In this document: piece after piece, positions 1-40,891 of the stretch
Layout: every line of letters begins with the position of its first letter
Numbering within the stretch: position 1 is the stretch's first letter
DNA from: Perkinsus olseni
Taxonomy: Eukaryota
Assembly: GCA_013115125.1 (NCBI GenBank)
Contig: JABANN010000270.1
Coordinates: 1 to 44,624, forward strand
Direction: 5' to 3'
Length of the DNA: 44,624 bases
Translations under genes and position numbers: made by a program
Notes under the pieces: generated by a model
Seen by the model: the letters and a program-made list of their open reading frames with translations, nothing else
Told to the model about the DNA's origin: nothing
Databases searched by the model: none

Positions 1-69
1 CACCACCCAGTCGACTAAGTTTGGTAATTTATAGAAAGGGGTTACACGTGAGGATCACTGGAGCCATAG

Positions 70-990
70 TTGAGTACTTCTGAAGGCTCTCGGCCGGCTA
101 AGCGCCCAAGAAAGAGCTCATCGTATCCAAGCATCGCACTGTATTTCCGGACGAGGTCTGCTCCGAGTTCCTCGTCTCCGGCCGTGACCGGCGGAGGCAG
201 AGTCCAGGAGGGCACTGAGCCAAGTCCTCCCGCTGAGGAAGGACTGCCCTCTGACCAAGATGAGAGCATCGTAGCTAGCACAGGTCAAGCTAGAGCGGAT
301 TTTGATGACCGGGTTCTCGAGGCTGTGAACGTCCTCAACCCTGATGACCTTCCTCGCAGACCTGCCAGTGGGAAGCCGGCTGACGTCAAGCAGAGCGACT
401 GGATATGCCGAGTCCCCAACGGCCCTTATGCCGGGTATTACTGTCGCGTCTGCATATACATATGCCCCCGGGCTGGGGGCCCCGGCACAGCTGGCCGTTG
501 GTGGGTGCAAGTGGGGGTGCTTGGGTCACAAAACCTGTCGCCATCAACGATGTGAAGAAGCTCAAGAAGAAGGCGACGAAGCACGTCAACAGCGACGCCC
601 ACTTCAGAGCATGCACTCGCGTCTGGGAAGACCAAAATCTCAACCTTGGACGTGGAATACTGTCTTCGTTTGCCGAAGTGCTAATGGGAAAGATACTCAC
701 TCGAACTCATACCAGCGCTGTGAAAACACCTCGGTTCAAGGCGTACTCATTACTTAAATGTTGGGTGCCGCACTCTGGCTTCTTCGACTAGCTGTTGTAC
801 GCTTGTGCTGCCGGGACCGACGCTGGCCTATGGCAGTGGCTCGCCAATCGACCCAACAACGCTCTCTACGCATCTCGGTCGATCTTCACCCAGTATCCGG
901 AGTCCATCGGTCGCGTAATGACTACCCGCACTCAGGAGAGGCTCAGGAGGCTCGTTGCTAGGAGTCAGTAATTCTCGCTGATATCGTAGA
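70..990 (+). pseudogene. Decayed hAT-family transposase N-terminus (TTF-type zinc finger + DUF4371-like region)
   Basis: W..Y-C-x2-C (DWICRV..YYCRVC) continues after a frameshift near 500 into AWVTKP..KKLKKKATKHVNSDAH (H-x2-S-x2-H). After a TAG at 789-791 it reads NNALYASRSIF..IGRVM..RLV..*FSLI, resembling the 'NA.YTS..IQ...FS' segment before the first hAT catalytic Asp. One frameshift and two stops. Confidence 0.6.
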
Positions 991-1540
991 CTAAGTCTAC
1001 GAGTTTACGAGTCGTAGACTGGCTGCGCGTACGAGCGCCTCCAGGAGCAAGGTTTGGGGTAGGAAACACTTATGGGCAATCAAGGGATTGCTGGAGAGCC
1101 CCCTGCTAGGCGTAGGAATGCCCTAGGATCGCGCTCAGTGACCAAACGCAACTGTCATGATATAATAGCAGGCTGCCTCCTCCGAACTTCACAATAACCG
1201 TTGATAACAGTGTAGCCTCCACAGGTGACATTACCGGGATTATCGGGGACAGGAGAGGTGCATGTGGATCCATGCTGATGGTTGCCACGCCGCACAACTT
1301 GTGGGTCACAAGAGGCGTCGAGGTCGGACCCGGTCCGACGGACCGTATGCACTGATGAACTCTAAAAGCCATCTGCTACCTACCCTCAATGAGCCAGCGG
1401 ATTCACTAGCTCTCACTCCAGTGGAGAGTGTGTGGTTGTCCACGGAGTGGGCTCCAGCATGGTTGTGACTGCGTGCAAGATGTCAATTATCGATTAACTT
1501 CTCACAACTGCGTTATCGGCTTGATCACCTTCATTGAATC

Positions 1541-2400
1541 ATGTCGGTCCTATCTGGCCCATGTCTCGCTGCCTTGCCGGTTGTTGCTCTGTCTGGCTGG
1601 CCGGCCATACCTAACTTCAACGCCTTCCCCTACACCGGATCGTTAATGTAAAGGGAGGAAAGTTCTGGTGTAGAGGTTGTTTTACAACCTGCAATGGGAG
1701 GGGCCATTGTACGTGGCCGTGAAATGCGGAAACCAGAGTTACGAGGACGGTCCATTCGCCCTTAGCTGTCGCGCACAGTACCGCAATGGTTGTGCCCGTG
1801 GTGACACCGCGTTCAAGATTCAGTTGAAACCGATTTATTATCCCTGGGAATACATCGATTCGCAGCTTGGTATGGACTAGATCTACAACGGCGTGAAAGC
1901 TGCCTGTCCTTTCATCGAGTTCGCCGAGGGAGACATGGTGGGTTTCAGGGTGAACTCCTGGAACTCGGGTACCATCCAGTTCCAGGGAAAACGGGTGACA
2001 CTCACTCGCTTCAACCTTCCTCTAAGGGAGGGTATGTACCTTGCGGGAAGACGCACCTGTGGTGAGTGCCACCGAGCCAACTTGATATTCAACGTCACTC
2101 AAGACGGGTCATTGACAATGAGTTGCAGTAATGGGAGGACTGGTGACACCACCGCTACCATTGGCCCTTACAAGCTGTACAGAAAGAGGGTAGGGGAACC
2201 CTACGCTGTGGACTTCGGTGGTGAGCGTTATCGCTTTCTTGAGGAGGCACGCAGGACTTGTGGACTCTGTTTCAACATTGACGATAGGGACGTCGAAACG
2301 CTTTGGTTCTATGAAGGCGGCTTCTATACCTACCTTAACATAAACTAAGGGAAGTGGACAGGAGTGACTGATGTTCCATCCTTCCCGGTATGTCAACTCC
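1541..2400 (+). pseudogene. Disrupted gene for a secreted lineage-specific repeat-domain protein
   Basis: Signal-peptide-like start MSVLSGPCLAALPVVALSG at 1541, TAA at 1649, frameshift near 1680. ORFs 1677-1880 and 1893-2348 are in the same frame, separated by a TAG. Two similar ~110-aa modules (..C....GP[FY]....C). Confidence 0.5.
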
Positions 2401-3587
2401 TTATTTTCGTCTAGGCGAGTGTTCCGAACCTCCCTGTGTGGTTCGGGTAAGCTGGTCGCTCCTTAAAACTCTTATGACCGGCTTGTTCGCCGTCGAATCT
2501 CTCTTTTACCCCAACTCGTACATGCCGGGCAGGCATTCTCATGTATGTTCTCTGCTAATACCAGACTCGTTCTGAGGATGCTGGTCGCTTTGTGTGACAG
2601 TGTCGAAGAATGGCTCTGGCCTTACGGATTCGAGGACTCCTCGACGAGGAGCTGTTCTACTCGCTCCGCTTCTGTTGTACTGAGCGCGGTTACAGAAGCC
2701 CGCCCGATCGATAGCGTAAAAATTGATTTGTGTTACGATCTAAGCGCTGCTGTCTATGTTGGTAGACGACGGTCGACTTCATACACCTCTGCGTCCGTAT
2801 TCTACGACAAATAAGAGCTAACCCTGAAGTAATACCCCTCGCTATCACTGGTCGATCACCCGAGATTAGCTTGAGTGAGAGCAACAGTCACAAATCTTGC
2901 ATTTCGTACGATTTGTCCGCGTCCAAGGTTGCAGTGAGATTGGAGTCGGCGTATAACCTACCGCTGCTAACGACAGAATGATTCAAAGATCGATGGCCCT
3001 TTCTGAGCTGAGGCTCCTGCGCTCCGCTGAAGAAGGCGAAATTGGGAAGGCCTGTAGCAGTCTACCCTCTGGCGCTCAATGTGTTCGCGTGCTGCTGCTG
3101 CTGCTGCTGGCACGCGTAGTCAGTCCGCTCAACCCGAGAAGTGGCTGCTCTTCCCTTCGTAAATTCAGTGTGCGGGTTGGGAGAGACTGGCAGTAAAGAC
3201 TATGGTCCCGGATGGTATTGACTCTAAACCTGTTACAGTAACCTCGCTTGATATCTACGCCCTTCTGACGCCGTGTTATGGTTTGCCGTGTTTGCAACGT
3301 GTCGATGTTGGTGGCAAGCGATGGCGTTGGCGTCTCAAGTATACAGTTCACCTATGTGCATCCGATGGTGTGTGTTAATTCATAATCCAAGACTGGTCGC
3401 GGCTTAGCTAGACTCTTCCCGTTGTGCTCAGTTAGAGGCTCTCTGTAGCGTTGTTATGCAGTGCAATCAGAACGTTCGTCGAGAAGCATCCGGTGGGGGT
3501 CTAATAACTCGGCCGGGTCTAATAACTGTAGCTCGTGTGCATAAGTCTCTGTGAGAATATCAGCTCGGAGTTCTTTGAGACACTGAG

Positions 3588-4809
3588 ATGCCACCGACCG
3601 GGATAATCACCCTGGACCGCATCTTGAAGATAACAGGCCAGTTCGATCCATTGACTGTCACCCTTCTTGAACTCACTGAGCAAGGCTTGGAAGAGATCGA
3701 CAGAAGTAACCTCGGCAGGGCGGCAATGGATCTTCAGACGGTATCAGTTACCAGACGCAGCGATCAGGTATCGGACTGTGTGAGAATACCATCTGGCTGG
3801 ATCTCTCCGGGAACAGGATATCTAGAGGTGCTTCACTGGCGTTGGATGCTGGCGGTAGTCGGATCTCATTAGACTCCCTTATTCAGGGCTAGATGTCGTC
3901 CGCCGTCTATCCTGCCTGGCTTATCTCGACTTGTCCAACAACAGGCTCTCGGAAGTAAAAAATGCTCATCTCGCTGGTATGTCAAATCACCAGTGCTTTT
4001 GTAAGGTCGTTGATCTCACCGGCCTTGTCAGCCTGAAGAACGTAAATTTGGACGGAAATCCTTTCCGTACAGTGCGGGCGGATTTGTTTGCTGATCATCC
4101 CTCGACCGCGTCCACCATAAGTTGCTCACAACGCGATCGAACTTTTCCCTCTAGGAAAGGTTTCGGACTTGGCAGGGTTGTCGGGGTGCTCTCAGTTAGA
4201 AAATATCTCACTACGGAGATGCCCCTTAGTTGAGCGGGTAGCGGAAGGTCCTGCCGGTCCCTTCCTTGGTAGATGTTAGCGTTAGGTATCCTTTGCGACT
4301 CTCGCGTCAAACCTTAGAGCTGTAGTGCCCAGTTTGAGGAGACTCAATGGTGTTAATATTGTGGAGGTGGATAAGATGCCCTTGGATGCTGCTCCGGAGG
4401 CATCAGGTGTGTCGTGTATTCAAGAGGAATGAACTTTAGTTCATTCCGCGGAAGTAGTGGATCCCTGCAAGCGGTGCGTGTGTGAACGCCATCCGGCGCC
4501 CGAGTTCCAGTAGGGGTCTGAGAAACGCAACTTGTCTTCACCGAAATTGCGCTACTCGTAAAGATGCTGTAGTGATGTCGATCAGTGGAGGACCGTTGAG
4601 TGCAGCGATTCGACTTCAGGATCCTCCCTAGCAACGGACGAGTATCTCGCCAAAACTCGCCTGGAGCTGTCGCGGCCCTGGGTAGACGACGACGCCATCA
4701 ATGGAGCACTAGACAGAGTGGGTTCCTCCACCATGACAATCCCCTATTCCTGTCCGCGTCAGCTGCGCTCACGACGGTTCGAGTCGAAGAACATGCGCAT
4801 GATAGATGA
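3588..4809 (+). CDS. Leucine-rich repeat protein, LRRC61-like (multi-exon; 3' end uncertain)
   Basis: N-terminus IITLDRILKITGQFDPLTVTLLELTEQGL; spliced LRRs WLDLSGNRI, YLDLSNNRL, NVNLDGNPF, ENISLRRCPL; LRR-cap-like VPSLRRLNG. Confidence 0.65.
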
Positions 4810-4988
4810 GCTCCTCTGTGCAGGGGAGGCCAGGCCGAGGATGCCTTCGCCTGGAGCCTTCGATGAGGCCAAAGCGGCGGGGTCGTGACTGTTGTCTCGT
4901 CTAGTGTTGCGTTCCATGGCTGAGGGAAGCGTGGGCGAGACAAGCGATTTTATGGCAGTTTTCGAGCGGCTCTTTTTCCCCCAGTTCT

Positions 4989-6881
4989 ATGACCAGTGCT
5001 GGGCTATACGATGACCGGTGCGAGAACACTCAAGGAAGACTCTCGTTGCATCGTGAGGTGGCCTCCCTCAACACAGAAGACCTTCTCAGCCCCTTGTGTC
5101 TAGAACTCCTTGGGCCACGGGCTAAGGCCGAGCTGGTGTGACTCTCCGCTACCACAGCTTACGGAGCTTCGCTCCGCTTCAGGTTGGTCACGCTCGAGCC
5201 CTGCTACATCGCGAGATCGACAACTTTGATGGTCGAGAGCCTGATACCCATAAATGGGCGAAGGCCTTCCCGCTGGCTGAATCGAGATGCGGTCGAACGA
5301 GTTCGTCGAGTACGGTTACCTCTCTCGCCATTCACAGCGCGGAGGATACGGCCAGGGACGTCTGCAGTAGTACCGTTGGTCCATGGGCCGCTACCGCTCC
5401 TCGCAGGTGGCACGACCTGGTGGTTAGCTGAGGAGCTCTTGCCGCATGTCCTCTCCTTCATAGTGGAAGTCGGAGAGAATCTTAGGTCGCTCCGAGCAGT
5501 ATGTGAGTACTCTGATCCCTGCCGTTGTCGAGCAGTTGACCTCCCAGGTAGGGCCTTCAACACGGCAACCCGCCTACCCCAGTGCTATCAAGGATCTCAT
5601 GTGTATCTGAGCAGTGGCGCCTGCAAGGCTGTGGACCCCGAGGCTCACTGGATGAAGGTTCTCGAGCTTCCACTCGAACAGGTTTGGCCGCTGCTGGGCT
5701 GCTCTGCTCGATGTACCCGTCTGAGGGAAGTTTCTTAACCGTCGGATTGCACTGCATGCCAACACTACAGAGAGCCCTCAACTGACACATCGGCAACAAT
5801 CTAACTAAAGCGAAACCGGCTTTATTGTGCACACGCGCGCTGCTTCGGTGTCAGGCTGCATCCATCACCGTTGGTACATTAGGAGTTCCCGTCCGCCATC
5901 TCGAGCTGCTATCTGATGTACTGTCGATGTTTGCAACTGTTCGAATGACCGCCCTTGCTTCAGACCTTCGGTACCGATAAGGTGGTGAGGCATATGACGG
6001 GCTTCGCTCGCGAAGTGCACAGCCCCAACATAGAGTGGGTCGACGAGCACACCGTGAGACGGAAGGACGAGCATGATCCTTTCCTGGCTATCGTGCTCGG
6101 CAACGCTCCGCTAAGACGTAAGTATCGATGTAGCCTGGTTTGCCAGATGTGGCCTCTCTCAGGCCTGGTTTGCGGCGATTGTTATTTCGCTTTTCGGATA
6201 GCCAAGACGAGTCGACGACATTTTGGTGGCGGTGTGACGATAGCCCTCACCACCAACCCTCCACTACAATCGGTAGGTGCCTCGTTCCCCCTGTCAGTTT
6301 CATGTTGCTACTGAGCTCTTTGTCGTTGCGCTGTTGCTTAGATACCGGAGAAGCTGCGGGGTCCCGACGTTACACTAGCGATCGTTCAGAAGGGTGAGGT
6401 GTTCGTCTATGGTGAGAAGATAGAAACTAGGGTAGGGCGTGTAGCGTTGAAGCTCTGAGGAAGCCTCTGAGCATTGCTTCAGTTCCTGTACTGGAATGCC
6501 TCGTCATTGAAGGAAGGGGATGTTGTAGGCCTGCGAATCGATCGGGAAGGAAGCGTTACACTGTAGGACGCTTCATGCTTCCATTGCGAGCCACATGGCT
6601 CTTCGCGTGGTCGTCGACAGATACAGGAATAACAGGATAGTTCCCACCACAGCCCCTCTGCAGATCGCCTACTTGGGCGTACCGCCGCAGCTGCTGCTGC
6701 CTGGGGTTGATCAACCCAGCATGTACGCCCGTACCTGTGCCCTGTCTATCGCGACGGCACAGTACTAGTGGTGATCAGATACGCAATGCTGCATGTGAAA
6801 GCTAACACTACAGCCGTTACATTACTCCCCGACCACGAGCCTCCTGAAGATGACAAGTTTTGGCTGTCTGAAGGGCAGTGA
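4989..6881 (+). CDS. Putative F-box-like + Neuralized (NHR)/SPRY-like domain protein (multi-exon; start uncertain)
   Basis: EELLPHVLSF..LRSLRAVC (F-box-like); HSPNIEWVDEHTVRR..AIVLGNAPL..YFAFRI..GGGVTIALTTNPP and LKEGDVVGLRIDREGSVTLY (NHR-like); stop TGA 6879-6881. Confidence 0.45.
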
Positions 6882-7112
6882 TGTGATATTCATTATGATT
6901 TCATTTTCAATTGTTTCGTGCTCGGATTGTGTTTGTCAATTGACACTGTTCGTTTTCGGGAGCCGCGACGCTCCTCGTGTGCGATAAGTCGTCGCTTGGC
7001 CGGTATGACAGAAAGGAAAACCCGAACTCGACTAGACCTCTTCTGAGCACTGAGACGCTGCTCTACTTCAGTTGATTTTAGCGTGTTTAGTGGTAGCCTG
7101 CGTAGTAAAAGT

Positions 7113-9419
7113 ATGAAGTTCCAAAGCAATTCAGTAAGGACAGCTCCAGTGCGAAGACAGCTGCTTGCGACAGCGGTCGCTTCTCCTGTTGCAGATCATC
7201 GCATTCATCATCGGCTCGTACTCTGTCGCGGCAGAAAAGTTAGAGTCCACAGCAGGCACGGCGCCGCGGCAGGCCTCTGTCGTGGGGAGCGAGTTCCAGG
7301 TTGAGAACAATGCAGGAAGCGATGGCCAGGACGACATTCATGCGCCCTACAAACTCATCATCACGACCGAACCTAGTGAGTGCTGCATAGGGTTATCTTG
7401 TCCGTTACACGACGGCAGATTCTGGCGGGGGTCGTCGACTGGCCAGCATCGAAGATCACGTCAGAAGGCTCAACAACAGAGTGAGGAGAGCGAGTGACCA
7501 GCCCTGTTCGACCATGGTGACTTGTAGACTCTGAGCTCCCAATTCACCACCCTTCTGAACAGCATTCGCTCAACTAAAGTCCTCGAGAAGATGTCGCTGG
7601 AGGTTCTCACCCTGCGCGATACCAGTAGGCACCGAATCGAGAAGGGGGTGTCAGCCTACTCGACAGGTTCCTACACGCCGGCGGAGATGTGTGAACTGTT
7701 CATGGAAATACAGCGGGAAATGTAAGTCATTATGCGTCTGTATTGATGATGCTCGTCATTGCACGGCTCAGTCACGGAGATGACGATGGAGTCTTCTGCG
7801 GCCCGGACGAGATCGTTTACGGTGAGCCTTTGGTCCGAGATAGGGGTCAGGTTGTCTCTTGCTCAGCCGACGCGACGATCCCGAATGACCCTTCCTATGG
7901 TCTACAGTATCACCATGCGCTCATCAATGCGCCACAGGTGTGATGCGACTGAGTCCGCGGCGACGCGTGAGCAGCCTGCGCCCTTCAGGCGTGGGACGTC
8001 ACCACTGGAGACCGCTCGCTGGTGGTTGCTCTCATCGACTCTGGGATCGACTATAGCCATCCTGACCTAGCCGACAACATTTGGACCAACCCGGGAGAGA
8101 TCCCGAATGACGGTGGGCAGCCTTCGGTGATCCTCTCCTGTACCTTCCTTCGCCTTCAGGCATCGACAACGATGGCAACGGGTATATTGATGATGTTAAC
8201 GGCTGGGACTTCCACGGTGATGATGCCAACCCAATGGACGCCTATGGTCACGGCACGCATGTTGGAGGCATACTGGCAGCTGAGGGTGAGTGCGCCCTGT
8301 GGAGGGCTCTCGGGCCAGGCTGTGCTGTCCCAGGTAACAACAACAGGGGAGTAGCCGGGGTGGCCTGGAAGGTGTCGGTGGCGCCTCTGAGATTCCTCAA
8401 TGAGAAGGGCCAGGGTTACCTCAGCAACGCCCTTGAGGCCATTGACTATGCCATTACTATGAACATCAGGATGAGTAAGCGACGGGCGTTCTATTATGGT
8501 GGGCTATAGTGCTCCTCAGGTGTGAACAGTTGGAGCTGTACAGGGTGCAGCGTCCCTACTTTGGAGACCGCAGTGCAACGAGCAGGTGAGCAGAGACCAG
8601 GAGGCTCTCTGTTCACGGCAAGACCGTCCTCAGGCGAGGCTGGACACCTGTTCATCGCCAGCGCGGGCAACAAGAAGAATGACAACGATGCCGTAGGTCG
8701 AGCTCCTACTGGTGGCCTCGTAGGCCCCGTCTGTAGACCCCTACGATTCCATGTGGCTTCAACTTGGATAATATCATCTGTGTTGCCGCTACGGATGCCA
8801 ATGACGTTCTCCTGTGAGCTCGACTCTCCTGCTGCTGCTTGTGTGCACCTCTGTCCCCTCAGGAGCAATAGCAACTACGGCGCCACCACAGTAGATCTAG
8901 CCGCACCTGGTGGTTCCATCTACTCCACCAAACCGTGAGTGGCTGGCGTGAATGCGATAGTCTGTCGCACCCCTTCCCCTGGCGTTCGGTGGTGCTCTAC
9001 TCTCTCCTGTCAGGTCTAACACGTACGCTTATATGTCCGGCACGTCAATGGCTGTACCCATGGTGGCAGGAGCTGCTGCCTTGATGCTGGTCGCAAGGCC
9101 GCTCGCGACCGCAGCTCAAATCAAGGTGCTTGCCAGCCATCACCATGTCATGTCATTCCTCCGCTGGTAGTCTTCGATCCTGAGCAGCGTTGAAGCCGTC
9201 ACTGGACTGCAGGGCAAATGCGCTAGTGGTGGCAGACTGGACGTGGACGCGGCGCTCACCTCCATAACGAGTATGACCGCAATGTCAAATCCACCCTGGA
9301 GCTTGTCTTTTTTCCTAGGTATTGTATCGGCATCGTCCATCACAACAACAACAACAACAACGATTTCACGTACGATTGGGGAGGCCTGCTTTCCGCACAA
9401 CACTCAGTTGGAGTCCTAA
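7113..9419 (+). CDS. Secreted subtilisin-like serine protease (peptidase S8), multi-exon
   Basis: Signal peptide MKFQSNS|IIAFIIGSYSVAA. Catalytic motifs VALIDSGID (~8025-8050), GHGTHVGG (~8246-8270), oxyanion ASAGN, SGTSMAVPMVAGAAAL (~9035-9083). Thr-rich tail; last exon approximate. Confidence 0.93.
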
Positions 9420-9504
9420 TACTATGGCGCGACCGCTGTTTATCCTATTAGTTCACTATAAGTGAATAGGGAAAATATGGAGATGAGTATGATGTATCAT
9501 TATA

Positions 9505-9833
9505 ATGATATTATTATTATATTCATTATTATACACGATGTCATTCTCTATGGATTGTTTATGTATAACTTGTCGTTGCTCCTCCTGGCCACGCTCTCCT
9601 CCCTTCAGCGTGTGAGCAAGCAGCAAACGACGCCTGCGCCGCACTGGACAACGGAAGCTGGTGCCAATACGGCGTTACCGTCTCGACATGCCAAGGAGCC
9701 TTCTCTGTTCAATGTCCTTGCGGACAGGTAAGAGCCTCTGGTCCTCACCTCGTTAACGATGCATCACCTTCAGAACCGCCGAGCCCTCTTCGACTACTCT
9801 GATTCGAAGCTTGGAGCAGGCCTGCATATCTAA
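9505..9833 (+). CDS. Small secreted cysteine-rich peptide precursor, 78 aa, 3 exons (9505-9562, 9609-9727, 9774-9833)
   Basis: Two 46-nt GT-AG introns give an open frame: MILLLYSLLYTMSFSMDCLSCEQAANDACAALDNGSWCQYGVTVSTCQGAFSVQCPCGQNRRALFDYSDSKLGAGLHI*. Hydrophobic N-terminus, 6 Cys in exon 2. Confidence 0.75.
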
Positions 9834-9941
9834 CTCTCCTCTCACCAGCTCAACTGCTGTGTGGAAATATCTAGATAACTTGAACTCTGTTGTGTAAATC
9901 ATATCTTCGCTTCACAATTCACTCTGCCCCGATTCAACTTT

Positions 9942-11060
9942 ATGCGTGGGCTTGTATCCATCTTTTTCGCCCGTCTCAATACTATCGCAGAATCGTTCAA
10001 AAATTCCCTTACAAGTTTACATGCGTATGTTGATCGATGAGCCCCTGTTGAGTTTCATCTACCCCAGCACGTGCTGGAATCTTAGCTCGACGCACGACTT
10101 AGAAAACTATACAGCAACTCCGGTGGGGGAGTCTACCATGCGTTTGAGCGCTTCTATTGCGAATACCGATCTTAAGCAGATTTTCTCACTGCAACCCCCC
10201 GGTTCATGGGCTCCAGCGTCTGCTACGTCTTGGTCGCCCAGGGCGACTCGCCCTCTCGACTCTGTTCTCGGCCGCGATGGCTCTGCAGACTGCCTCACGA
10301 ACTCAAGTAGGTGAACTAGGTTTTGCTCGGACTGAATTTGTCTTGCTCTTCAAACACGGTTTATGGTGAGCACCGCGCTGAACCGCCTCTCTGCTCGAAG
10401 CTTTGAGCTGTCAAATTACTTAATGTCGGCTATTTCCTGTCGAGTCTTGAAACTATTTTTCCTCGATCAGGTGAGCCATGCCTCCCAGGGGGTATGTAGG
10501 AAGCAGTATTCCTCATCGAGTGAATATCCTTACTTAGTCATCTCCCTGCAACGCGAAGATACTTACTTCAGCTGGAACACGGGTCCAAATGACTTCTTCA
10601 ATTACAATATGTGGTCAAGGGTTTCTAGATTCCTTTTGTTCCCGGGGCGATCCAGGTAGCTGACTTGGAAAGAAAGAATAGTCTATGAGGAAGAGCTAGC
10701 AGCCTCGAAGACTGTTTCGAATCGCACCGTCTACGAGAGCACCGCGGGTCTGACCGATAGATTCCATAACTTGATCGCCCCATTGAACCCCTTCGACCAC
10801 CTTGCCGACGACCTCAAAGTCCAGTTCAGGAGGCCCTTGACGGAGGCCAGTCGCCGAGCTCTTTTCGACTACGTCGAGAATAGGCCTCCCCAGGAATACA
10901 CTGCTGGAAGCCAATGGATTCCCAAGTTCGTTGATCATGTGATCGACTCGTTTCTCGTGAAAGCTCACAGAGAGAGGGAACGCGAAGGGAAGCCTCTTAA
11001 AGAATTTGGTGAGTAGGCTTCTCACGGGGTCATTGGTCATGTTTGGGCTATGTTCTTCAA
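9942..11060 (+). CDS. Hypothetical multi-exon protein (boundaries approximate)
   Basis: Short GT-AG introns and a long coding-like exon ~10660-11008 (LTWKERIVYEEELAASK..RRALFDYVENRPP..KPLKEF|gtgagt). No family recognised. Confidence 0.35.
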
Positions 11061-11436
11061 CGTAATCTTCCCCGGTGATAGCCCACCTGGACAAATTGCT
11101 GCATGCAAGTTAATGTGTTCGCCGCAGTACTTCCTATTCTTGAAGAACGTTCGCATACTTGCTCCGTCAGAACGTTGAAGAGTGTTATGAGGAAGTCCCC
11201 ATGGCGCCTCAGAAATGCCCCCATGATGTCGCTGTTGATTGAAAATGCTGTCGAGTTGAGTGTGTTCCGAAAAGGGTCAAGTAGACCAACTATGCTACTC
11301 AGCTCTTCATGTTCCCCATTGGACCATCTTGTAGTCGACGCTAACCCAAATCAAAAATACGGATAGTAAATCGGATGCATACCAAATATTGGTATCATCA
11401 CCACACAATCATGCTGCGTACTATCAGCACTCCTAT

Positions 11437-12224
11437 TCAGGAGTCAACGAACCGGAGGTGCATGGGCAACTTGCTCCGTCTCGCTCGCTCACTAGCAGGA
11501 AGGGCGCGGAAGTCGCCTCGTCCCATCACTAGGCTGTGACGGACGTCGTAGCTTTCTTTCGTGACAGTACACAGGTAGGAGACAAAGTGCTGATCGTCTT
11601 TCTCGAGGTCTCCCTTTTCTTGAAGGTCTCTGAATGCAGCCTTTACCGCTGCTATGCATCGATCGCTCTGTCCTGTGGCTTGGGCTAGCTCAGACTTGAG
11701 TGGATCCATCTGGCGATTCACGGTCAGCCTAGGGAGAGGTTGTCTATAATGACCGGCCGCGGCGTCTTCCCTGACACAAAACAGCTTACTTAATACTCTA
11801 ACCCACATCATCTTTCACAGCGTGCAGCGGAGCGAAGCGAGCACATTCTCACAGCTAAAGCCAGCCGTTGAGAACGGGCGAGGTACGAACCGATCGCTGC
11901 ATACTCACCGTCTGAACAGAGTATGCCCACCAGACTTCCCGTCTGCGCAGTCTAAGCTGCTGATAATTACACCATCATCATACTTAAAGTAAGCTGTGGA
12001 TTCTCGAGGCTTGCTGAACAGCTTTTTGATGGCTGATACGGGTACCTTCTCTTTGACGTAGCAGTGGGAAGACTGATCTCTTTTGGGCGTGGGTATCTAC
12101 CATAGCACGGACGCGACTGGGCGAGTGCATGCATCCGGGTCGTCTAAGGACCTACCACTTCGAGATAACTAGCCGTAGTAGTGATACTGAAGAAGATGAT
12201 GGGGAGTGTTCGTAGACTGAGCAT
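11437..12224 (-). CDS. Hypothetical secreted protein (multi-exon)
   Basis: Minus-strand ATG at 12224 begins a signal-like MLSLRTLPIIFFSITTTASYLE; coding-like last exon DPLKSELAQATGQSDRCIAAVKAAF..RFVDS*. Confidence 0.45.
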
Positions 12225-12257
12225 GGCGCCTGGCAGCAGAAATTTTTCTGGAACAAT

Positions 12258-12652
12258 CGGGGTGTTCAATAGACCTCTCCTGAAACTCGAGAGCGCTCCC
12301 AGGAGCGAAGTTTCCCAGATCTTGTTCAAAAGATCTGCCTCAGGGGCGCTTCCAGGAGTGATCTCAGGATCACTCCCGAACGTGTTCAATACAGTTCGCG
12401 CTCGCCCCCAGGTGCGCTCCTGGGAGAGCTAATTTCAGGATAGTTCTCACCGCTCCTGAGAATGCGCAAGACGAACACCACCGCATTGGAAGTTCAGCAC
12501 AACACGGTTATCGCAATTGAGTTCGCTCCCGGGAGCGCTCCTGCAAAGTTTCAAGAGCGAGTCTATTGAACACAATTCCAGGAAGGCTCTTCAAAAGCGC
12601 TCTTTAAGAGCCCTCCTGGGATCGAACTTGGCCTCGACTATTGAACACCCCG
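12258..12652. mobile_element. MITE (non-autonomous DNA transposon), 395 bp, 15-bp TIRs, 3-bp AAT TSD
   Basis: cggggtgttcaatag (12258-12272) and ctattgaacaccccg (12638-12652) are perfect inverted repeats. AAT lies on both flanks (12255-12257, 12653-12655). Internal degenerate GAGCGCTCCCAGGAGCG-type repeats. Confidence 0.85.
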
Positions 12653-12856
12653 AATGGTCGTCAGTTTGAACTTGCGCGGATCAGCCAGCGCTCGCCATTC
12701 TGATCGATATTCAACTTGCCTTCCGCCAGTTGAGTTGAGTTGCGTTGCCGTGGCTGTTATAGTGTATCTATCGACTTGCCGAGAAGGGTGTTTTATATGA
12801 GTGTGTTGCCGTAGCTCAACTCGTCGTAGCTCACCCGACGAGCCATTACGACGGCG

Positions 12857-15800
12857 ATGGCATCGGGGCAGAGAGGTTTCAATGTGAAGTGCCTTGCTGC
12901 CACCCTATGGAGCGAAGCCAAGACGGAAGAGTTTATCGAACGGGGAGATACCAGAAGAGTCTGTGATGTGGTGAAGTTGTGGTATGCCCTGGTAGTCGTT
13001 CTTTGCCTTGTTAATATGGCATCAACGAAGCCCGACAAAAGAGTGGACGATGACTTGGAGGGCGAAGATGAGCTAACACAGCAGGAACGGCAGAAGGGGG
13101 TTTATCAACGTCAGGGCACTTACCGGGAGAAGGCTTTACATAGGGTACGTTAATTACATGGGATAGAGTGCGGTCTGGATTGGCAGCGCTGGTGATTCTC
13201 AGGTGCTATCACCACAGCGTGCTGACCCCTTCTCATCCGAGACACCCGCTGCGGATTTGACCACCTATTCGGATGTGGCACAACAGGCCTCTTTACAGAA
13301 GGAGAGGGCGGAGGTAGTGAAGGGAAGTACGTCCACTGTACCCATTCTACCGTACAAATACTGACAGGCAACTTACACAGAACAAAAATTTTTCGTACTG
13401 TTTGACGCCTGATGGGACAGCAGGGAGCTTTGAATCTTCTAGCGGTTGAACGCTCTGTGACGGTGTGGAGGGGCCTGGCAGGCATGGCGAGTTGCGGTGG
13501 AATCAGGTACTAAGGCAGATCCAGACTCAGAAGAAGGAAGGGGAGAATGGTGTTGGGGTAAAACGGAAAGACGAAGGCAAAGATGAGGACTCGAAAAAGG
13601 AAGAAGTCAAGAAGCGACGTAGCGGTAGGACTGCTGCTGCCGGCTTCACCTTAGTTGTGGAAGTATCCGCTGTAGGATTCGATATTAAGGAGCCGGATGA
13701 CCGCTGGGAGACACCTGTGGCCGGGTCTGGAGAGTGGGGCGAGACCCCGGCCGTCGGGGCGTTCGGTGGCGGGGAACCCGCTACGAAGAAGAAACGTATG
13801 ATGCCTGTGTAGTGGCGCTCCGACGGTGGAGCTGGTCGTCGTTTGCTAGGTGTGTCCCGCTTCTCCGATGCTCCTCCCGAGACGCCCTACGGGGCTGGCG
13901 GGGAGACTCCGGACGGCAGCGGCAGTATGGGAGAGACTCCAGTGACCAGGAGCAGATGGGATGATGCTGTGGGCCGAACGCCAGGTAGTAGGAGGGGAGG
14001 TCGAAGGAATGGGTAAGGTGGGTGGTACCTGTTTATGTTTCAGCTACAGCAGGAGCCACCCCGGGAGCCACTCCTTTGGTGGCCGCGACTCCAGGGACGA
14101 CTCCCCTTTTCCAGCCTGGCATGGAGACGCCGATGGGGCTCACACCGCAGTTCCAGGCTGCTGGGTAGTAATAGCAGCGGGGGTTTTTTTCTCTTACGCT
14201 GGACTGCCGTAATGCATTTTCTGAGTTGTGTTGCCTTAGGTATGGTATGACTCGATTGGACCGAGAGCTTGACGTGAGGAACCGGTACGTATGCTGGCTG
14301 CTTGCCGAAGGCGTAGTGGTTGCTGTACTCAGGTACATGACTGATGATGAGATTGATGCGCTGCTGCCGCTGACGGGCTATGAGATTGTGAAGGCACCGG
14401 AAGGGTAGTATTGGGGCGTCCGGTGGGATGGGGGTACTTCACCGCATGGGTAGGTATGAGGCACAGCAGCAGGCCCATCGGATGAGCGTGAATCAGGCTG
14501 CCACTCCTCTGGGGGAGACTACTGGCTTCTCAAGTAGGGTCGGGGGATTGTCACGAGGGAAAGGCTGTATCGTCGTTCATGTTAGTGCCTTCGGGTGGCG
14601 CTACCCCGGCTATGATGGCTGGACTGGATGCCTCCACGGCTGGTCTGAGTGATGCTGGTACGGGACTGGTCCACCCCAAGTAGGTTCATCAGAGTTTATC
14701 ATCTGCTGCCGCTGTGATGGAGCTGCTGTAGGTATGGTGGAGCTGGTGATTTGCCGGACCTTCGACCGGAGGATGTACAGCACTTCTCTGCCCTTATACA
14801 GGTGAGGGACCGGGTGATGTGCTAAGTGAGGGGCCGTGGCACGAGCGTTTGGAGATTCAGGAGATGAATATTCGATAGGATTCGGCCGTGGATTCGCCCT
14901 TAACTATTCCGTTAGATTGTCCTCTTTTGTTCGTATTGTTATGATAGCAGTCCTAGCTCGTACGGTATTGGGGACACCGAATGAGGAAAACTGCCCTCGT
15001 GCGATGGCTTTTCTCTCGTCAGGGTGGTGAGACTGATGATAATCTGAGCCCCGAGGAGGCGAAGGAGAGGAAGGTTATGGCCTTGCTCTTGAAGGTTAAA
15101 AACGGTGAGCTCAACTTGGGTCGATGATTTTGCTGTGATGAGTGCTGTTTGGTCGGTAGGCACGCCGCAAATGCGTAAAATGGCTATGAGGGAGATCACG
15201 GAGCGGGCAAGGCAGTTCGGACCGGACGCTCTGTTCAACCAGATTCTGCCTCTCCTCATGAGCACCACCTTGGAAGACCAGGAACGGCATCTTTTGGTCA
15301 AGGTAGGCCGCTGCAGATCCGTCGGCCTGGCAGTCCCCTGCGCACCACTCAGGTTATCGACCGTGTCCTCCACAAGCTGGATGATATGGTCCGCCCCTAC
15401 GTTCATAAAATCTTGGTGGTTATAGAGCCTCTGTTGATCGATGAGGATTACTTCGCTCGTGTGGAGGGCCGAGAGATCATCTCGAATCTGTCAAAGGTGA
15501 AGCGTCTCTCCTGGGTTTGCTGTTACGGTCGTCTCTCCTCAGGCAGCTGGTTTGGCTACCATGATCGCGACTATGAGGCCCGATATCGATCATCCCGATG
15601 AGTAAGTCGGGGGTGCGCTTTTCTCTACGCAGATACATATGCCATTCTGATAGACTGCTGTGGGTGTGTGTTACTGCCTCGGCGTAGGTACGTCCGTAAC
15701 ACCACTGCTCGAGCGTTCGCTGTGGTAGCCAGCGCTCTGGGCGTACCACAGATCATGCTGTTCTTGAAGGCTGTATGCCAGAGTAAGAAGAGCTGGCAGG

Positions 15801-18800
15801 CTAGGCATACCGGCATCAAGATCGTAATACTGGGGAATCCTGGAAGTCGGCCTTGACGTGGTGGTGTCCGTGATGCAGGTCCAGCAGATCGCTCTCCTGA
15901 TGGGGTGTGGAGTCCTACCATACCTCAAGCAACTAGTGGACATAGTGCAGTTCGGGTTGGGAGATGAGCAACAAAAGGTAGAGGTTGATATCTTCCAGGC
16001 CGCTGGTCAGGCCGCGTGCTACAGGTCCGTACGATCACGGCGTTGGCTCTGGCTGCCTTGGCCGAGGCATCCTTCCCTTACGGTATTGAGTGCTTCGACA
16101 GCGTCCTCAGGCCACTATGGCGGGTAAGTTGTTAAAGCGACCTGAGCTAGTCAAGGTGCACGCCTGTCTTTATTAGGGTATCTGCGAACACCGCGGTAAG
16201 GGATTGGCGGCATTCCTCAAGGCCATCGGGTGAGTCTTACAGGCGGGGGGGATTGGAATGCACGCAGAAAAGACTAGGGGTATCATATCCCTGTCTTCCG
16301 GGGGTGTTATGGTACGGGCTTGCGTGTGAAGTTTTGTTGTCCCGGATATAAACAACAACAAGGTTGTGGATAGTCAGTCGTTGGCCAATTTCTGCTCGTC
16401 ATCGATACTGTCCTGCCGATGGTCGACCGCCCTGCCGCATTGCTCAGGTATATCATCCCGTTGATGGACGCCGAGCATGCCAACTACTACACTCGGGAAG
16501 TGATGATCATATTGGTGCGAGAGTTCTCGACTCCTGACGAGGAGATGAAGAAGATCGTAGGTTGACCCTGGCAAGATACGAAAGGGATTGCTGTGGTGTA
16601 GGTCCTGAAGGTTGTGAAGCAATGTGTAGCGACAGAGGGTGTTGAACCGGCCTATGTTCGTGAGGATATACTTCCGCCCTTTTTCCGAAACTTCTGGGTG
16701 GTCCGCATGGCCGCTGATCGCAGTAAGTGTGGCGGTGTCTGTTGCAGCGCTCAGCAGTGGCGTTGTTGTGGCTTAGGGAACTACAGGCAGCTGGTGGACA
16801 CTACGGTGGAGCTGGCCAGGAAGGTGGGCGGAGCGGAGATTATCCAGAGAATCGCCGAAGACCTGAAGGACAACAACGAGGCGTACTGATAGTGGTGATC
16901 TGGGTGGGGGCTTGGAACCGGGTGGCCAGGTACCGACGGATGGTGATGGAGACAATTGAGAAGATTGTGGATGAGATGGGCGTGCAGGATGTCGACTCTC
17001 GTCTGGAAGAGCAAGTATGATTTTACAGCGGAGCGAAGCTGGGTTGTTTATGACTTTTCTTTCAGATTGTTGATGGTATGCTGTATGCCTTCCAGGAGCA
17101 GTCGTCTGACGATACTCAGACGATGCTCAACGGCTTCGGCACCATAGTGAACTGCCTAGGGGTACTGCAGCTGCTGGTGCCGGTCGCATGAACCATAAGG
17201 GATGATGACCCTCTTTCAGGTCCGCATCAAGCCCTACTTGCCGCAGATCGCCGGTATCATCCGTTGGAGGCTGAACACACCCAGCGCCAGGGTAAGGACT
17301 TCCTTCGACGGCTGGCACTGATGGTGCCGTCAGGTGCGACAACAAGCAGCGGACTTAATAGCGCGTATTGCTGGCGTTATGAAGCTGTGTGGTGAGGAGC
17401 AGATGCTGGGACACTTCGGCCTCTTCCTCTACGAGTATCTTGGAGAGGAGTATCCTGAGGTCAGCATACGTGCCATAGTGATATCTTTTGTGTTGCGACT
17501 CTTGAAATTATGAGGACGCGGCATGACCGACTTTGTTGTCTATGGGAAGATGTACCGTTTAACAGGTGCTCGGATCGATCCTGGGTGCATTGAAGGCCAT
17601 CGTGAACGTCATCGGCATGACCAAGATGGCTCCGCCGATCAAGGATCTTCTTCCCCGGCTAACGCCCATTCTAAAAAATCGGCACGAGAAGGTTGAGGAG
17701 AACTGTAAGTGTTGTATCATCCGGTCCGCCCGCAGGTGACTTTGTCCTTAGGTATTGATCTTGTGGGCCGCATCGCCGATCGAGGTGCCGACTTGGCTCC
17801 TCCTAGAGAGTGGAACAGGATATGCTTCGACCTGCTGGAGTTACTCAAGGCACAGAAGAAGGGTATCCGACGAGCTGCCGTGAACACCTTCGGGTAGTTT
17901 GGGAACGAACTCACGCTAGTGGTCGGAGTATCCTCAAATCCATTGACCGCATATCCTGTCGCGGGAGAGGCATTGTCTTCTGTAAAGGTACATTGCCAAG
18001 GCTATCGGCCCCCACGATGTGATCGCTACCTTGCTCAACAACCTAAAGGTTCAGGAGCGACAGTTGAGGGTCTGCAGTAAGTCGTGGGAATTTCTAGGCG
18101 CGCGGTAATTTCGAGTGCCCATCTCAGCGACGGTGGCAATTGGTATCGTTGCGGAGACCTGCGGCCCTTTCACTGTGCTGCCTGCCATCATGAATGAATA
18201 CAAGGTGCCCGAGTTGAACGTACAGAACGGTATCCTCAAGAGCTTGTCATTCATGTTCGAGTAAGTTGCAAGGTGGCGTCGTGTGGGGTATCATTTATAG
18301 TGCGGTAATACAGCTAGATGGGCGCGGGAGTCTGAGTATCAACTGATAATTTAGTGTAGGGAGTAGCATTGAGGATCAGCGGGGGCGTCCCGGTTGTCCA
18401 GGAGCCCTTTCGGGTCCGACTCGTCCCACCGCTGTATGTCATTGTCGTCTTCTATCGGTGATCCTTATTGGTGTATCAGGTATATTGGTGAGATGGGCAA
18501 GGACTACGTCCATGCGGTGACCCCTCTGCTCGAGGATGCCCTCATCGACAGAGACCTGGTGCATCGCCAGACTGCCACTTGGGCGACCAAGCATATGGCC
18601 TTGGGTAGCATTACCAGGCTTCCCTGTAGACAGGACTGTTCTTGCCATGAGTTTAGGTGTTCATGCTTTGGGTCAAGAGGAGTGCCTTGAGCATCTCATG
18701 AACTATATCTTCCCCAATATCTTCGAGACAGCCCCTCATATGATACAAGTACTACGGCGTGGCCTTCCGGGGTGGCGGTTGGCTGCAAGACTGCGTTTTC

Positions 18801-19239
18801 TCTCAGGCCTTCTTCGATGCGATGGACGCTATGCGAGTGAGCATTGGACCTTGCCGAGTGCTCCAGTAAGCGGTCGTTGGTGACCAGTGCAAGTCCGCAC
18901 ACCGTCCGACCATCAGATACGTCGTTCAAGGGCTGTGGCATCCGGCGCGGCGCGTACGGGAGTGCTACTGGCGAGTGTACAACTCTCTGTACATTGGAGC
19001 TGAGGACGCACTGGTGGGACTACCTCTAGGGGGAGGGGTCGGTCATATTACCTACAGGTTGCCTTTTACCCGCGTATTCCGCTGACATGGGACGGTCAGG
19101 ATGAGGAGCAGGACCATCCTGAAGTACCCAAGCTTGGACCGTAAGTGACGGGGGAGAGACGGGCACTGGGGGCCAAGAGGTTGCCGTTGGCAGGTACAAC
19201 AACCGATACTGGCGTACCGAGATGGACTTGATCATTTGA
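12857..19239 (+). CDS. SF3B1: Splicing factor 3B subunit 1 (U2 snRNP), many exons; start may be 12857 or 13017
   Basis: RWETP/WGETP repeats; [94 protein letters not shown]-terminus [10 protein letters not shown] (TGA 19237-19239). Confidence 0.97.
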
Positions 19240-19324
19240 TGAGGGCACAGTAGAAGAAGCGTCACTGCGCCACGAAATTGCAGTGCGGCGGCCTTACGTT
19301 ACAGCTGAACGTCGTTATTTACTA

Positions 19325-20400
19325 TTACTCTCTGGCGGAAGGGTTGTCGAGACTTGGCAGTCTAGAAAATCTCGAGAACAGTATTTTCCGTGCTAAAGTG
19401 ATGCAGTGAGTCGCGTTGTTCAATACAGGTGGATGTGTTAGAACCGGGGAGGCGAGATTGAGTAGCTCCTTTTTTACGGTGATGGCATCCTCGTCCTCCT
19501 GGACCGAGGTCAATCTGTCTAAGTGGGCGACTAACTACCTCAGTGATTCGCGCAACTGGGAGTGCGTGGAGTACCCAGAGAGGATTGGGGAGAGCACGCC
19601 CGCCTTGAAGTAGGATTGGCTGGGGACTGGGTGAAAGAAAGCCTTGTGTACTTCGCAACGCCATAGTCCTGGTCCGTTGTCAGAGTCCTCAAGGTACATG
19701 TGCGGGGGTGCGACGCGACCGCCACGATGAGCAAGAAGGGTATCACTGCAATCTATGAGATACGCGTGACGGCCGATGTCAAAGTAGGTCGTGAGGAAGG
19801 TATAATAAGTAGGAACCATTCCCTCAGGTTACACTGCCGATAGACAAGGGAAAGTCCCTATGTGAGGCAAAGGGCGAGATCAGCGTGCCTTGTGTGAGGC
19901 CGGCCCCGCCGTCTACTGGGCGATCAGGTTTCTTTTGCAGATCGATTCCGTCGACGCTGAAGACGGGTTCCGAGATACCAAGGTGAACTTCATCCCATCC
20001 ATGAACTACCAGCCGGGGGCTGACGAGGTTGGGCTGTCCCCTCGACTCCTCGTAGCAATTTTCTCTCTGCCGTTCAGAACCTGAGGGCGTTGATGTGCTC
20101 ACTTTTGGAGCGGTGTAAACAGGACCTGCCGCTCGTCGTCCGAAGGGCCCTGGTTCAGTTCGACCGGCGTATCAAAGAGGAAGCTTCCAACGTCCTAGTT
20201 CCGAGTGCTTAGTTTCCACCAATTATTGGGCTTGTCCTGAGCTAGTTGGAGTCAATCGGGCAGACCTCAGGATTCGGGCACATCGATCTTGTAGGGCCCT
20301 CTCCCGACCGAAAGGCCACCACTGTTCCCTTGCGGTCGTAGTTGGCGATACGTATACGGCCTTCGCAGTGTAGCGATGGTGAATCGTATTGGTCATCCTA
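19325..20400 (-). CDS. Hypothetical multi-exon protein (5' end uncertain)
   Basis: Minus-strand coding-like exons (e.g. 19535-19819) with GT-AG boundaries, ending ..LDNPSARE* convergent with SF3B1. Confidence 0.35.
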
Positions 20401-35200: not shown

Positions 35201-35988
35201 GGCCTTGGGCGTAGTCCTCATACCGCAGCTCCTCGAAGGACTTGCCCTTGTAGGCATCCATAGCTGTTATCGATACAAGCTAGCAGAAGGAAGGCTATGG
35301 CGGGGGACAACAAGAGTCTAAGGCCTACTACCTTTAGACGTGAGTCGTGGTCAATCACTTGCTGGTACTTCACCTGGGAGGTGCCTGCTGCCTGGCCACC
35401 TCCACCGAAGGCTCCTCCTCCACCGAAGAGACCACCCCCAGCGCTGCTCTGAATCAACGGGGCCAGTAGTACTAGTCTGGTGGGGTCATGTAATTCACCT
35501 GCTGCTGGCCGAACATTCCTCCTCCTGCCGCTACTGGCTGCTGACCGAAGAGGCCGCCCCCAGTGTTCTGCTGCTGACCGAAAGTTCCGCCACCGAAGAG
35601 ACCGCCACCGGAGGACTAAGATGAATTAAGACGAATTACTATAGCCGGTTGAGGAGGGCATCGATGCACCTGCTGCGGCTGGCCGAAAGCCCCTCCTCCT
35701 CCACCTCCTCCGAAGAGCCCACCAGCTGGTCGCTGTTGTTGGCCAAAGCCGCCTCCTCCGCCGAAGAGGCCGCCCCCTTGGGCCGACTGAGGGCTGCTAC
35801 CGAAGAGGCCTCCACCCGTGTTCTGAGGATCCCACCAGTGGCAATGGTACCTCTACCAGCCATATTACCTGTGGCTGCTGCTGACCACCGAAGAGACCTC
35901 CACCAGCCGGTTGGCCGCCACCGAAGAGCCCTCCTGCTTGGGAACTCTGCTGCTGTCCAAATAAGCCGCCGCCTCCCCCTCCGAACAT
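32232..35988 (-). CDS. NUP98: GLFG nucleoporin, Nup98/Nup116 family
   Basis: Dozens of GGLFG repeats; GLEBS motif [21 protein letters not shown]-terminal domain [65 protein letters not shown] at 32232-32234. Confidence 0.93.
33800..35960 (-). repeat. Coding GLFG tandem repeats (ccaccgaagag on + strand)
   Basis: Repeated [10 protein letters not shown] units within the nucleoporin. Confidence 0.9.
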
Positions 35989-40570: not shown

Positions 40571-40891
40571 GCCGGTCTTGGAGGGTTCTAGAAGTTGCAA
40601 AGGTTGTATTTTCCGTACGAAGCTTGTATCGTTGTTGCTGCTGGTAGAGCTGCTCGTGTGGTCGTAACTTTATATGGGGCGGGCTCTGCTTCGCTAAGAG
40701 ACCTGCCTCGCCACACCCTCGATTGGTGGGGGGTCATTGCCGATCACTCGCAGCCTTATACACTACTGTTCCATCATTATCACATCTGAACTATCGCGGG
40801 TTCTCTGTCATATTTTCCCGCTATCTGTTGAGGTTCGTGTTTTCCGGGGGTTGTACTACCGTGTGCTTGCTCCAGCAGCTTTTTTAGTTCC

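Follow-up and report, generated by a model that had tools for sequence, protein, structure and literature searches.

Candidate end-joining stems in a subset of long introns of the Perkinsus olseni SF3B1 gene

The stretch of DNA analysed here (hereafter the window) comprises 44,624 nucleotides (nt) of the Perkinsus olseni contig JABANN010000270.1, and carries on its plus strand a gene for SF3B1 with 35 introns. We propose that a subset of the long SF3B1 introns, namely 14802-15022 and 16230-16447, carries stems that join the two intron ends in the pre-mRNA in a zipper-like manner; we put the probability of this reading at about 0.4. A third long intron, 13314-13506, perhaps belongs to the same subset by way of a helix between the upstream exon and the intron. 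The complementary arms lie near the intron ends and pair more strongly than those of controls; the effect is seen on the sense strand only, and only between the two ends of one and the same intron. A stem in every long intron, or one restoring a fixed 'standard' length, as put forward in an earlier note on this DNA, is not supported.

Compact duplexes at the ends of long introns

Intron length in SF3B1 has a sharp mode: 27 of the 35 introns measure 42 to 59 nt (the earlier note had given about 40 to 60 nt for most introns). Four others are of middle size (75, 86, 94 and 106 nt), and four are long (193, 218, 219 and 221 nt). To the long and mid-size introns we applied a compact test: one 16-nt segment was paired with another, the overhangs that separate them from the intron ends being allowed to total at most 65 nt, and the most stable such duplex was retained. 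The controls for the long introns were 870 real windows of 219 nt, taken from the plus strand and not overlapping these introns, and, for 14802 and 16230, dinucleotide shuffles carried out separately on each end (n = 400).

The strongest end-proximal stem was found in the 221-nt intron 14802-15022 (plus strand), the removal of which is documented by an RNA joint skipping 221 nt. Its duplex of -24.4 kcal/mol was matched by none of the 870 real windows and by 1 of the 400 shuffles. The 5' arm (14831-14846) starts 29 nt past the 5' splice site, and the 3' arm (14995-15010) ends 12 nt ahead of the 3' splice site, where it abuts the pyrimidine tract. For the 218-nt intron 16230-16447 (plus strand), the length of which agrees with the total spliced length, the duplex reached -22.8 kcal/mol, and 6 of the 870 windows and 9 of the 400 shuffles did as well. 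Here the 5' arm (16242-16257) is G-rich and starts 12 nt past the 5' splice site; its best 3' partner (16423-16438) ends 9 nt ahead of the 3' splice site. The partner chosen for this arm in the earlier note, 16385-16400, yields only -16.4 kcal/mol. With 60-nt flanks included, the pairs of the 16230 stem have probabilities of 0.46 to 0.92. The two remaining long introns are unremarkable under this test: 18261-18479 (219 nt, plus strand) gave -18.0 kcal/mol, as good a value being found in 149 of the 870 windows, and 13314-13506 (193 nt, plus strand), considered without its exons, gave -15.2 kcal/mol (460 of 870).

The signal is specific to the two ends of the same intron. When the 5' end of one long intron was combined with the 3' end of another, the 12 mixed pairs averaged -15.3 kcal/mol (standard deviation 1.7), the best being -18.1. 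For all four long introns the own 3' end was the best partner, and the observed assignment was the best of the 24 possible permutations. Arms placed deeper inside the introns (overhang 66 to 135 nt) showed no excess, except in the 66 to 100-nt bin of intron 13314. The result was stable over arm lengths of 12, 16 and 22 nt and over overhang limits of 45 and 65 nt. On the antisense strand no excess was seen for the long introns, since 356, 73, 236 and 323 of 445 windows were as good, the second value being that of intron 14802. The compact signal therefore rests on the G-U pairs of the sense RNA.

A different picture emerged for intron 13314-13506. The earlier note had placed this intron at 13275-13506 and had described 14 contiguous pairs between 13284-13297 and 13464-13477. 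All 14 pairs were located in the sequence (11 Watson-Crick and 3 G-U). RNA contigs from four runs join 13313 to 13507, skipping 193 nt, so that the true intron is 13314-13506; because it starts at 13314 and not at 13275, the 5' arm (13284-13297, plus strand) lies in exon 2, ending 16 nt ahead of the 5' splice site. The intronic arm (13464-13477, plus strand) ends 29 nt ahead of the 3' splice site. The helix has a predicted energy of -22.4 kcal/mol, with pair probabilities of 0.96 to 0.97 for 13 of its 14 pairs (60-nt flanks). We repeated the compact test with the 5' arm allowed in the upstream exon, using 444 control pseudo-introns, among them windows adjoining real introns. The 13284/13464 helix (-24.8 kcal/mol as a 16-mer) was equalled by 4 of the 444, the duplex of 14802 by 4, that of 16230 by 15, and that of 18261 by 123. 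It may be added that the context fold predicts lengthwise pairing of exon 2, in its 3' part (13254-13296), with the last 43 nt of the intron (13464-13506), in several helices of probability 0.5 to 0.97 that enclose the 5' splice site in a loop.

Overall, the claim that end-joining stems stand out from controls is partly supported: the stems of two long introns, or of three if an exon arm is admitted, exceed about 98 to 99% of the controls. The earlier note had described paired arms in five longer introns. Introns 14802 (where its 14833-14845/14996-15008 pairing was located, with 12 of 13 pairs) and 16230 bear this out, and 13314 does so only through its exon arm. The other two do not. The arms of 18261 that the note had itself called weaker (18272-18287/18416-18431) are at chance level, and no end-joining pair of this intron has a probability above 0.4. 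In the 106-nt intron 17460-17565 (plus strand) the hairpin 17473-17482/17535-17545 is not unusual: the end duplex was matched by 228 of 297 real windows and the minimum free energy (MFE) by 185 of 297. As to the other candidates of the note, the hairpin of the intron at 15602 (about 15603-15687) and the intron near 17894, which it had left as unclear, were both ordinary relative to real windows, and the presumed 'LRR intron' at 4060-4153 lacks a GT at its start, shows no visible RNA joint, and folds no better than its shuffles (z = +0.26).

Gene model, intron composition and splice signals

The SF3B1 exons were chained by means of the reading frame and the GT-AG rule. The resulting gene runs from ATG to stop at 13016-19239 (plus strand), with an open frame of 1209 amino acids (aa) and 35 GT-AG introns. 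We assign it to SF3B1 because of the match of one 48-aa exon (15353-15496) with SF3B1 chains of the PDB (E = 3.7e-24), together with a sub-threshold match to HEAT_EZ in one of five exons (23.4 bits, compared to a cut-off of 27) and the open frame of 1209 aa.

RNA support came from contigs of the four runs placed on positions 1-20000. The 15 joints listed, out of 49, all fall at the coordinates of the model. One contig of 3791 nt has the length that remains when the model's 2594 intron bases are subtracted from the span 13012-19396, and the contig pieces 17564-17704, 17752-17892 and 19194-19396 also agree with it. No contig covered positions 1-4000 or 7338-12673. The output of our own ab initio gene finder was discarded: it merged genes, proposed 'introns' of 300 to 440 nt that are probably intergenic, and split the RNA-proven intron 14802.

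A metagenome scan for SF3B1 returned 80 loci, all SF3B1 of other eukaryotes. The nearest (L003, 3801 nt, from a metatranscriptome) is the spliced SF3B1 transcript of a relative and is without introns; it shares 98% protein identity in the query exon and about 75% DNA identity over 1292 aligned nt.

The short introns are in line with those of Perkinsus marinus, reported as mostly below 100 bp (PMC3101222). Three of the long SF3B1 introns are of nearly equal length (14802, 16230 and 18261, with 221, 218 and 219 nt) without detectable shared sequence, the fourth, 13314, being of 193 nt; the near-equal lengths of 218 to 221 nt may point to a second intron-length mode. As to composition, the introns are rich in G and T (33% G, 28% T), and G runs are frequent in their first 30 nt (GGGG in 12 of 35, GGG in 21 of 35). 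A pyrimidine run of at least 7 near the 3' end is present in only 5 of 35. A search for branch-point motifs in the SF3B1 introns yielded no usable consensus, and NTNAY was absent 5 to 40 nt from the 3' end in 9 of the 27 short introns. In intron 14802, the last 14 bases hold no A besides that of the AG.

Known systems and competing explanations

Because the introns are almost all of 42 to 59 nt, the splice sites are presumably paired across the intron, and the stems would then draw the two ends of a long intron together, as do the zipper and downstream stems of yeast or the stems predicted in long introns of diplomonads. Formation of the stems in vivo, and a help to splicing, are inferred. In yeast, zipper stems (located in the interval from 5' splice site to branch point) and downstream stems (in that from branch point to 3' splice site) were established through probing and mutation (PMC12350175). 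The resemblance lies in stems within long introns, bimodal intron lengths, a looped-out intron sequence that brings the signals nearer, and a stability beyond that of shuffles (PMC12350175). Zipper-like 5' arms near the 5' splice site are found in 14802, 16230 and 18261 (starting 29, 12 and 11 nt past it), and not in 13314, where the arm is exonic; a stability above that of shuffled or real controls is found in 14802 and 16230, and not in 13314 taken alone, in 18261, or in the four mid-size introns. The differences are that the yeast stems have in vivo probing and mutational proof, whereas those of SF3B1 are predicted from sequence; that the SF3B1 3' arms end 9 to 12 nt from the 3' splice site; and that the host is here an intron-rich alveolate with a short mode of about 50 nt.

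The earlier note had regarded stem-mediated intron shortening as known in yeasts, which is correct but too narrow. The same proposal exists for the diplomonads and parabasalids Giardia, Spironucleus and Trichomonas, where pairing in long introns is predicted to hold the splice junctions at the distance of a short intron (PMC6679479). Short introns are uniform in these organisms (35 to 45 nt in Giardia, 40 to 42 nt in Spironucleus vortens; PMC6679479), and the idea of a length constraint is identical to that of the earlier note. By contrast, SF3B1 as a single gene already contains 35 introns, a clear branch consensus is lacking, the residual lengths are not uniform (21 to 59 nt), and stems stand out in only two of the four long introns. 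For perkinsids, the note knew of no such report, and our literature search likewise found none; no paper listed addresses intron structure in Perkinsus by title or abstract.

Several results weigh against end-joining stems with a role in splicing. We folded the eight introns of at least 70 nt as a whole, each relative to 200 dinucleotide shuffles. The MFE z-scores were -0.41, -0.73, +0.16, +0.30, -1.39, -1.21 (intron 17460), -0.71 and -0.02, and 73 to 182 of 296 to 297 real windows of the same length folded as well as the long introns. The number of nt left in the exterior loop was 3 to 21 in the eight introns (3 to 15 in the MFE structures of the four long ones), compared to a median of 9 to 12 in the shuffles. 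Since shuffled introns leave so few exterior nt, any RNA of such size and composition 'folds back', and folding back to a standard length is no evidence by itself. That the two ends of any folded RNA lie close to each other is well known from the RNA-folding literature, and our shuffles, with only about 10 exterior nt, behave as expected from it; this general closeness does not, however, lead one to expect single compact stems that reach -23 to -24 kcal/mol and form only between the two ends belonging to one intron. The comparison with shuffled introns, which the earlier note had suggested as a check, and with real windows came out in favour of the compact stems of 14802 and 16230 and against whole-intron folds and the other introns. 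The equilibrium probability of the 14802 stem is itself low: 0.18 to 0.20 when the intron is folded by itself, and 0.05 once 60-nt flanks are added.

The geometry raises further difficulties. The overhangs sum to 41 nt in 14802, 21 nt in 16230 (59 with the partner 16385-16400), 59 nt in 18261 and 42 nt in 13314 through its exon arm. Set beside the short mode of 42 to 59 nt, this agreement is weak evidence, since the search range was itself 0 to 65 nt. The residual lengths vary between 21 and 59 nt, and in shuffled introns the ends come even closer together, so that a fixed length ruler, as imagined in the earlier note, is not supported. By the yeast definition, a zipper stem stops no less than 20 nt ahead of the branch point, and the linkers between 5' splice site, stem and branch point total 42 to 85 nt (PMC12350175). 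In the best SF3B1 duplexes (14802 and 16230) the 3' arms stop 12 and 9 nt short of the 3' splice site, which leaves no space for a branch point 20 nt past the stem. In 14802 a branch point beyond the 3' arm is impossible, and one located upstream of the 5' arm would turn its stem into a 'downstream stem'. The 3' arms extend over the pyrimidine tract and over what may be a branch region, which does not fit the yeast zipper geometry, and they would mask the tract rather than free a 'short intron'.

The sample is also small. Stems stand out in only two of four long introns and in none of the four mid-size introns, for which 228, 263, 138 and 108 of 297 windows were as good. By simple arithmetic, two or more of eight introns at P ≤ 0.0225 would occur by chance with a probability of about 0.013; because the hypothesis arose from the same data (a look-elsewhere effect), the true weight of the finding is below what this 1.3% indicates. 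Finally, G runs behind the 5' splice site easily form pairs with 3' ends rich in C and U, and the end-wise shuffles and the mixed pairs remove this confounder only in part.

These objections lead directly to the most serious competitor, which is nearly as likely as functional stems: the duplexes may be the tail of a distribution set by chance and by G+U-rich intron ends, without function and singled out by a reader in search of oddities. Six of the eight introns tested are ordinary, GGGG runs are common, the whole-intron folds are unexceptional, and the test uses the data from which the hypothesis came. Ordinary control windows reach -22 to -24 kcal/mol (for example 8933-8948/9093-9108, where the 3' arm is exonic). 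With arms of 60 or 80 nt, duplex energies show weak trends only (per-intron fractions 0.04 to 0.39), and mixed pairs often equal an intron's own ends, as for the 5' end of 14802 with the 3' end of 13314 (-41.8/-51.7 kcal/mol). Against chance stand the rarity of the 14802 and 16230 duplexes in both control sets, the own end being best in all four rows of the mixed-end table, the confinement of the excess to end-proximal positions and to the sense strand, and its stability under changes of parameters.

If the stems are real, they need not promote splicing. They could instead be brakes or switches that occlude the 5' splice site, the pyrimidine tract or the branch region and thereby slow or regulate intron removal, for instance in a feedback of SF3B1 on itself; we consider this rather unlikely. 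Such a role would fit the predicted MFE structure of 14802, where the 3' arm and a G-U extension pair with the tract CTTTTCTC directly before the 3' splice site. It would also fit the context fold of 16230, where the 5' splice site bases 16230-16235 pair with the downstream exon (probability 0.74 to 0.91), and the 13284/13464 helix, which holds the 5' splice site in a loop. Yeast introns with structure-controlled splicing autoregulation have been described (10.1101/2025.03.14.643126, PMC13232506). The RNA contigs of the four runs, however, show all 35 introns removed with no retained form listed, even if rare forms are lost from contigs. We identified no second structure that would exclude the first, and the small-sample caveats apply here as well.

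An origin of the arms as decayed terminal inverted repeats, left by elements resembling introners or miniature inverted-repeat transposable elements that inserted into introns of about 50 nt, seems more doubtful still. It has the merit of simplicity: if elements entered ordinary introns of this size, a normal intron length outside the arms is trivially explained, and the outside lengths of 41 to 59 nt do resemble short introns. Three of the long introns are, moreover, almost equally long (218, 219 and 221 nt). A precedent exists in Amoebophrya, which belongs to the dinoflagellate lineage adjacent to perkinsids and, like Perkinsus, to the Myzozoa. Its introners carry complementary sequences of 8 to 20 nt at the 5' and 3' ends of one intron, for which a hairpin bringing the exon boundaries together is predicted (PMC7789003). 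There, the repeats lie at the splice sites, direct repeats of 3 to 5 nt span the boundaries, the introns are mostly non-canonical, and repeated families are found (PMC7789003). The SF3B1 introns, on the other hand, are all GT-AG, with arms set back by 9 to 29 nt, no direct repeats flanking the arms and no repeat family within the window. Within the 44.6-kb window no further copies were detected, and the long introns showed no similarity to one another (all blastn E > 0.01); 12 local alignments among them gave z-scores of -1.44 to +1.97. Because the antisense duplexes are ordinary, the Watson-Crick part of the pairing is not significant alone, and this speaks against inverted repeats.

Least probable, to the point of being very remote, is that a small structured RNA, for example an intronic snoRNA, resides in the long introns and has the arms as a terminal or external stem. 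The host, SF3B1, is a housekeeping gene, and terminal stems are typical of intron-borne box C/D RNAs. An Rfam scan of 12900-19400 (E ≤ 5) nevertheless gave two weak matches below the gathering scores, none of them in the long introns; no C/D box pair was seen by eye beside the arms, and the loops, at 150 to 165 nt, exceed the length of usual box C/D RNAs.

Stems that bring the ends of particular long introns together would, if real, mean that the splicing of long introns is assisted by RNA structure not only in yeasts and metamonads, which are poor in introns, but also in an intron-rich alveolate whose short introns are very uniform, and would provide a simple rule, testable genome-wide, for introns that escape a length constraint. 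A wider reading can be formulated, which we regard as improbable: perkinsid spliceosomes might be tuned to introns of about 50 nt, a class of about 200 nt being spliceable throughout the genome by G-U-rich long-range pairing of the sense strand, also between an upstream exon and the 3' portion of its intron. If this were true, RNA structure would be a general and selectable determinant of which introns grow long in such a genome. Two introns of a single gene underlie the finding, and the concept has been published before. The value of the finding at present lies mainly in the correction of the gene model, in a quantitative test that could be applied to whole genomes, and in a warning that random sequences also bring their ends together.

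Other features of the window

Upstream of SF3B1, an RNA contig bears 10 extra letters before position 4957, which correspond to the inner part of the Perkinsus spliced leader PmaSL1 (PMC3101222); a trans-splice acceptor is likely at about 4957, and the match speaks for a perkinsid origin of the DNA. A 229-nt unspliced RNA contig at 5653-5881 has stop codons in all three plus-strand frames and may be an untranslated, antisense or unspliced piece. An inverted repeat of 49 nt (3428-3476/5737-5785) is 82% complementary, its arms lying 2260 nt apart.

At about 7750-9700 on the plus strand lies a protease-like gene with Asp, His and Ser motifs in its frames, which we take to be a subtilisin-like protease. 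It has short introns and one of 79 nt (8935-9013). One of the control windows falls on this gene, with a duplex of -24.1 kcal/mol between a 5' splice site region and the next exon.

On the minus strand, a long open frame of GGLFG-type repeats (33567-35279, continuing to about 36000) is the source of most direct-repeat families in the window; it is presumably an FG-repeat nucleoporin. Two tandem paralogous genes occupy about 39500-42300 on the plus strand, with direct repeats 2178 to 2182 nt apart. Both features of their products, a histidine-rich (HSHG) loop and membrane-like segments, would suit the cation-efflux transporters that we assume them to be.

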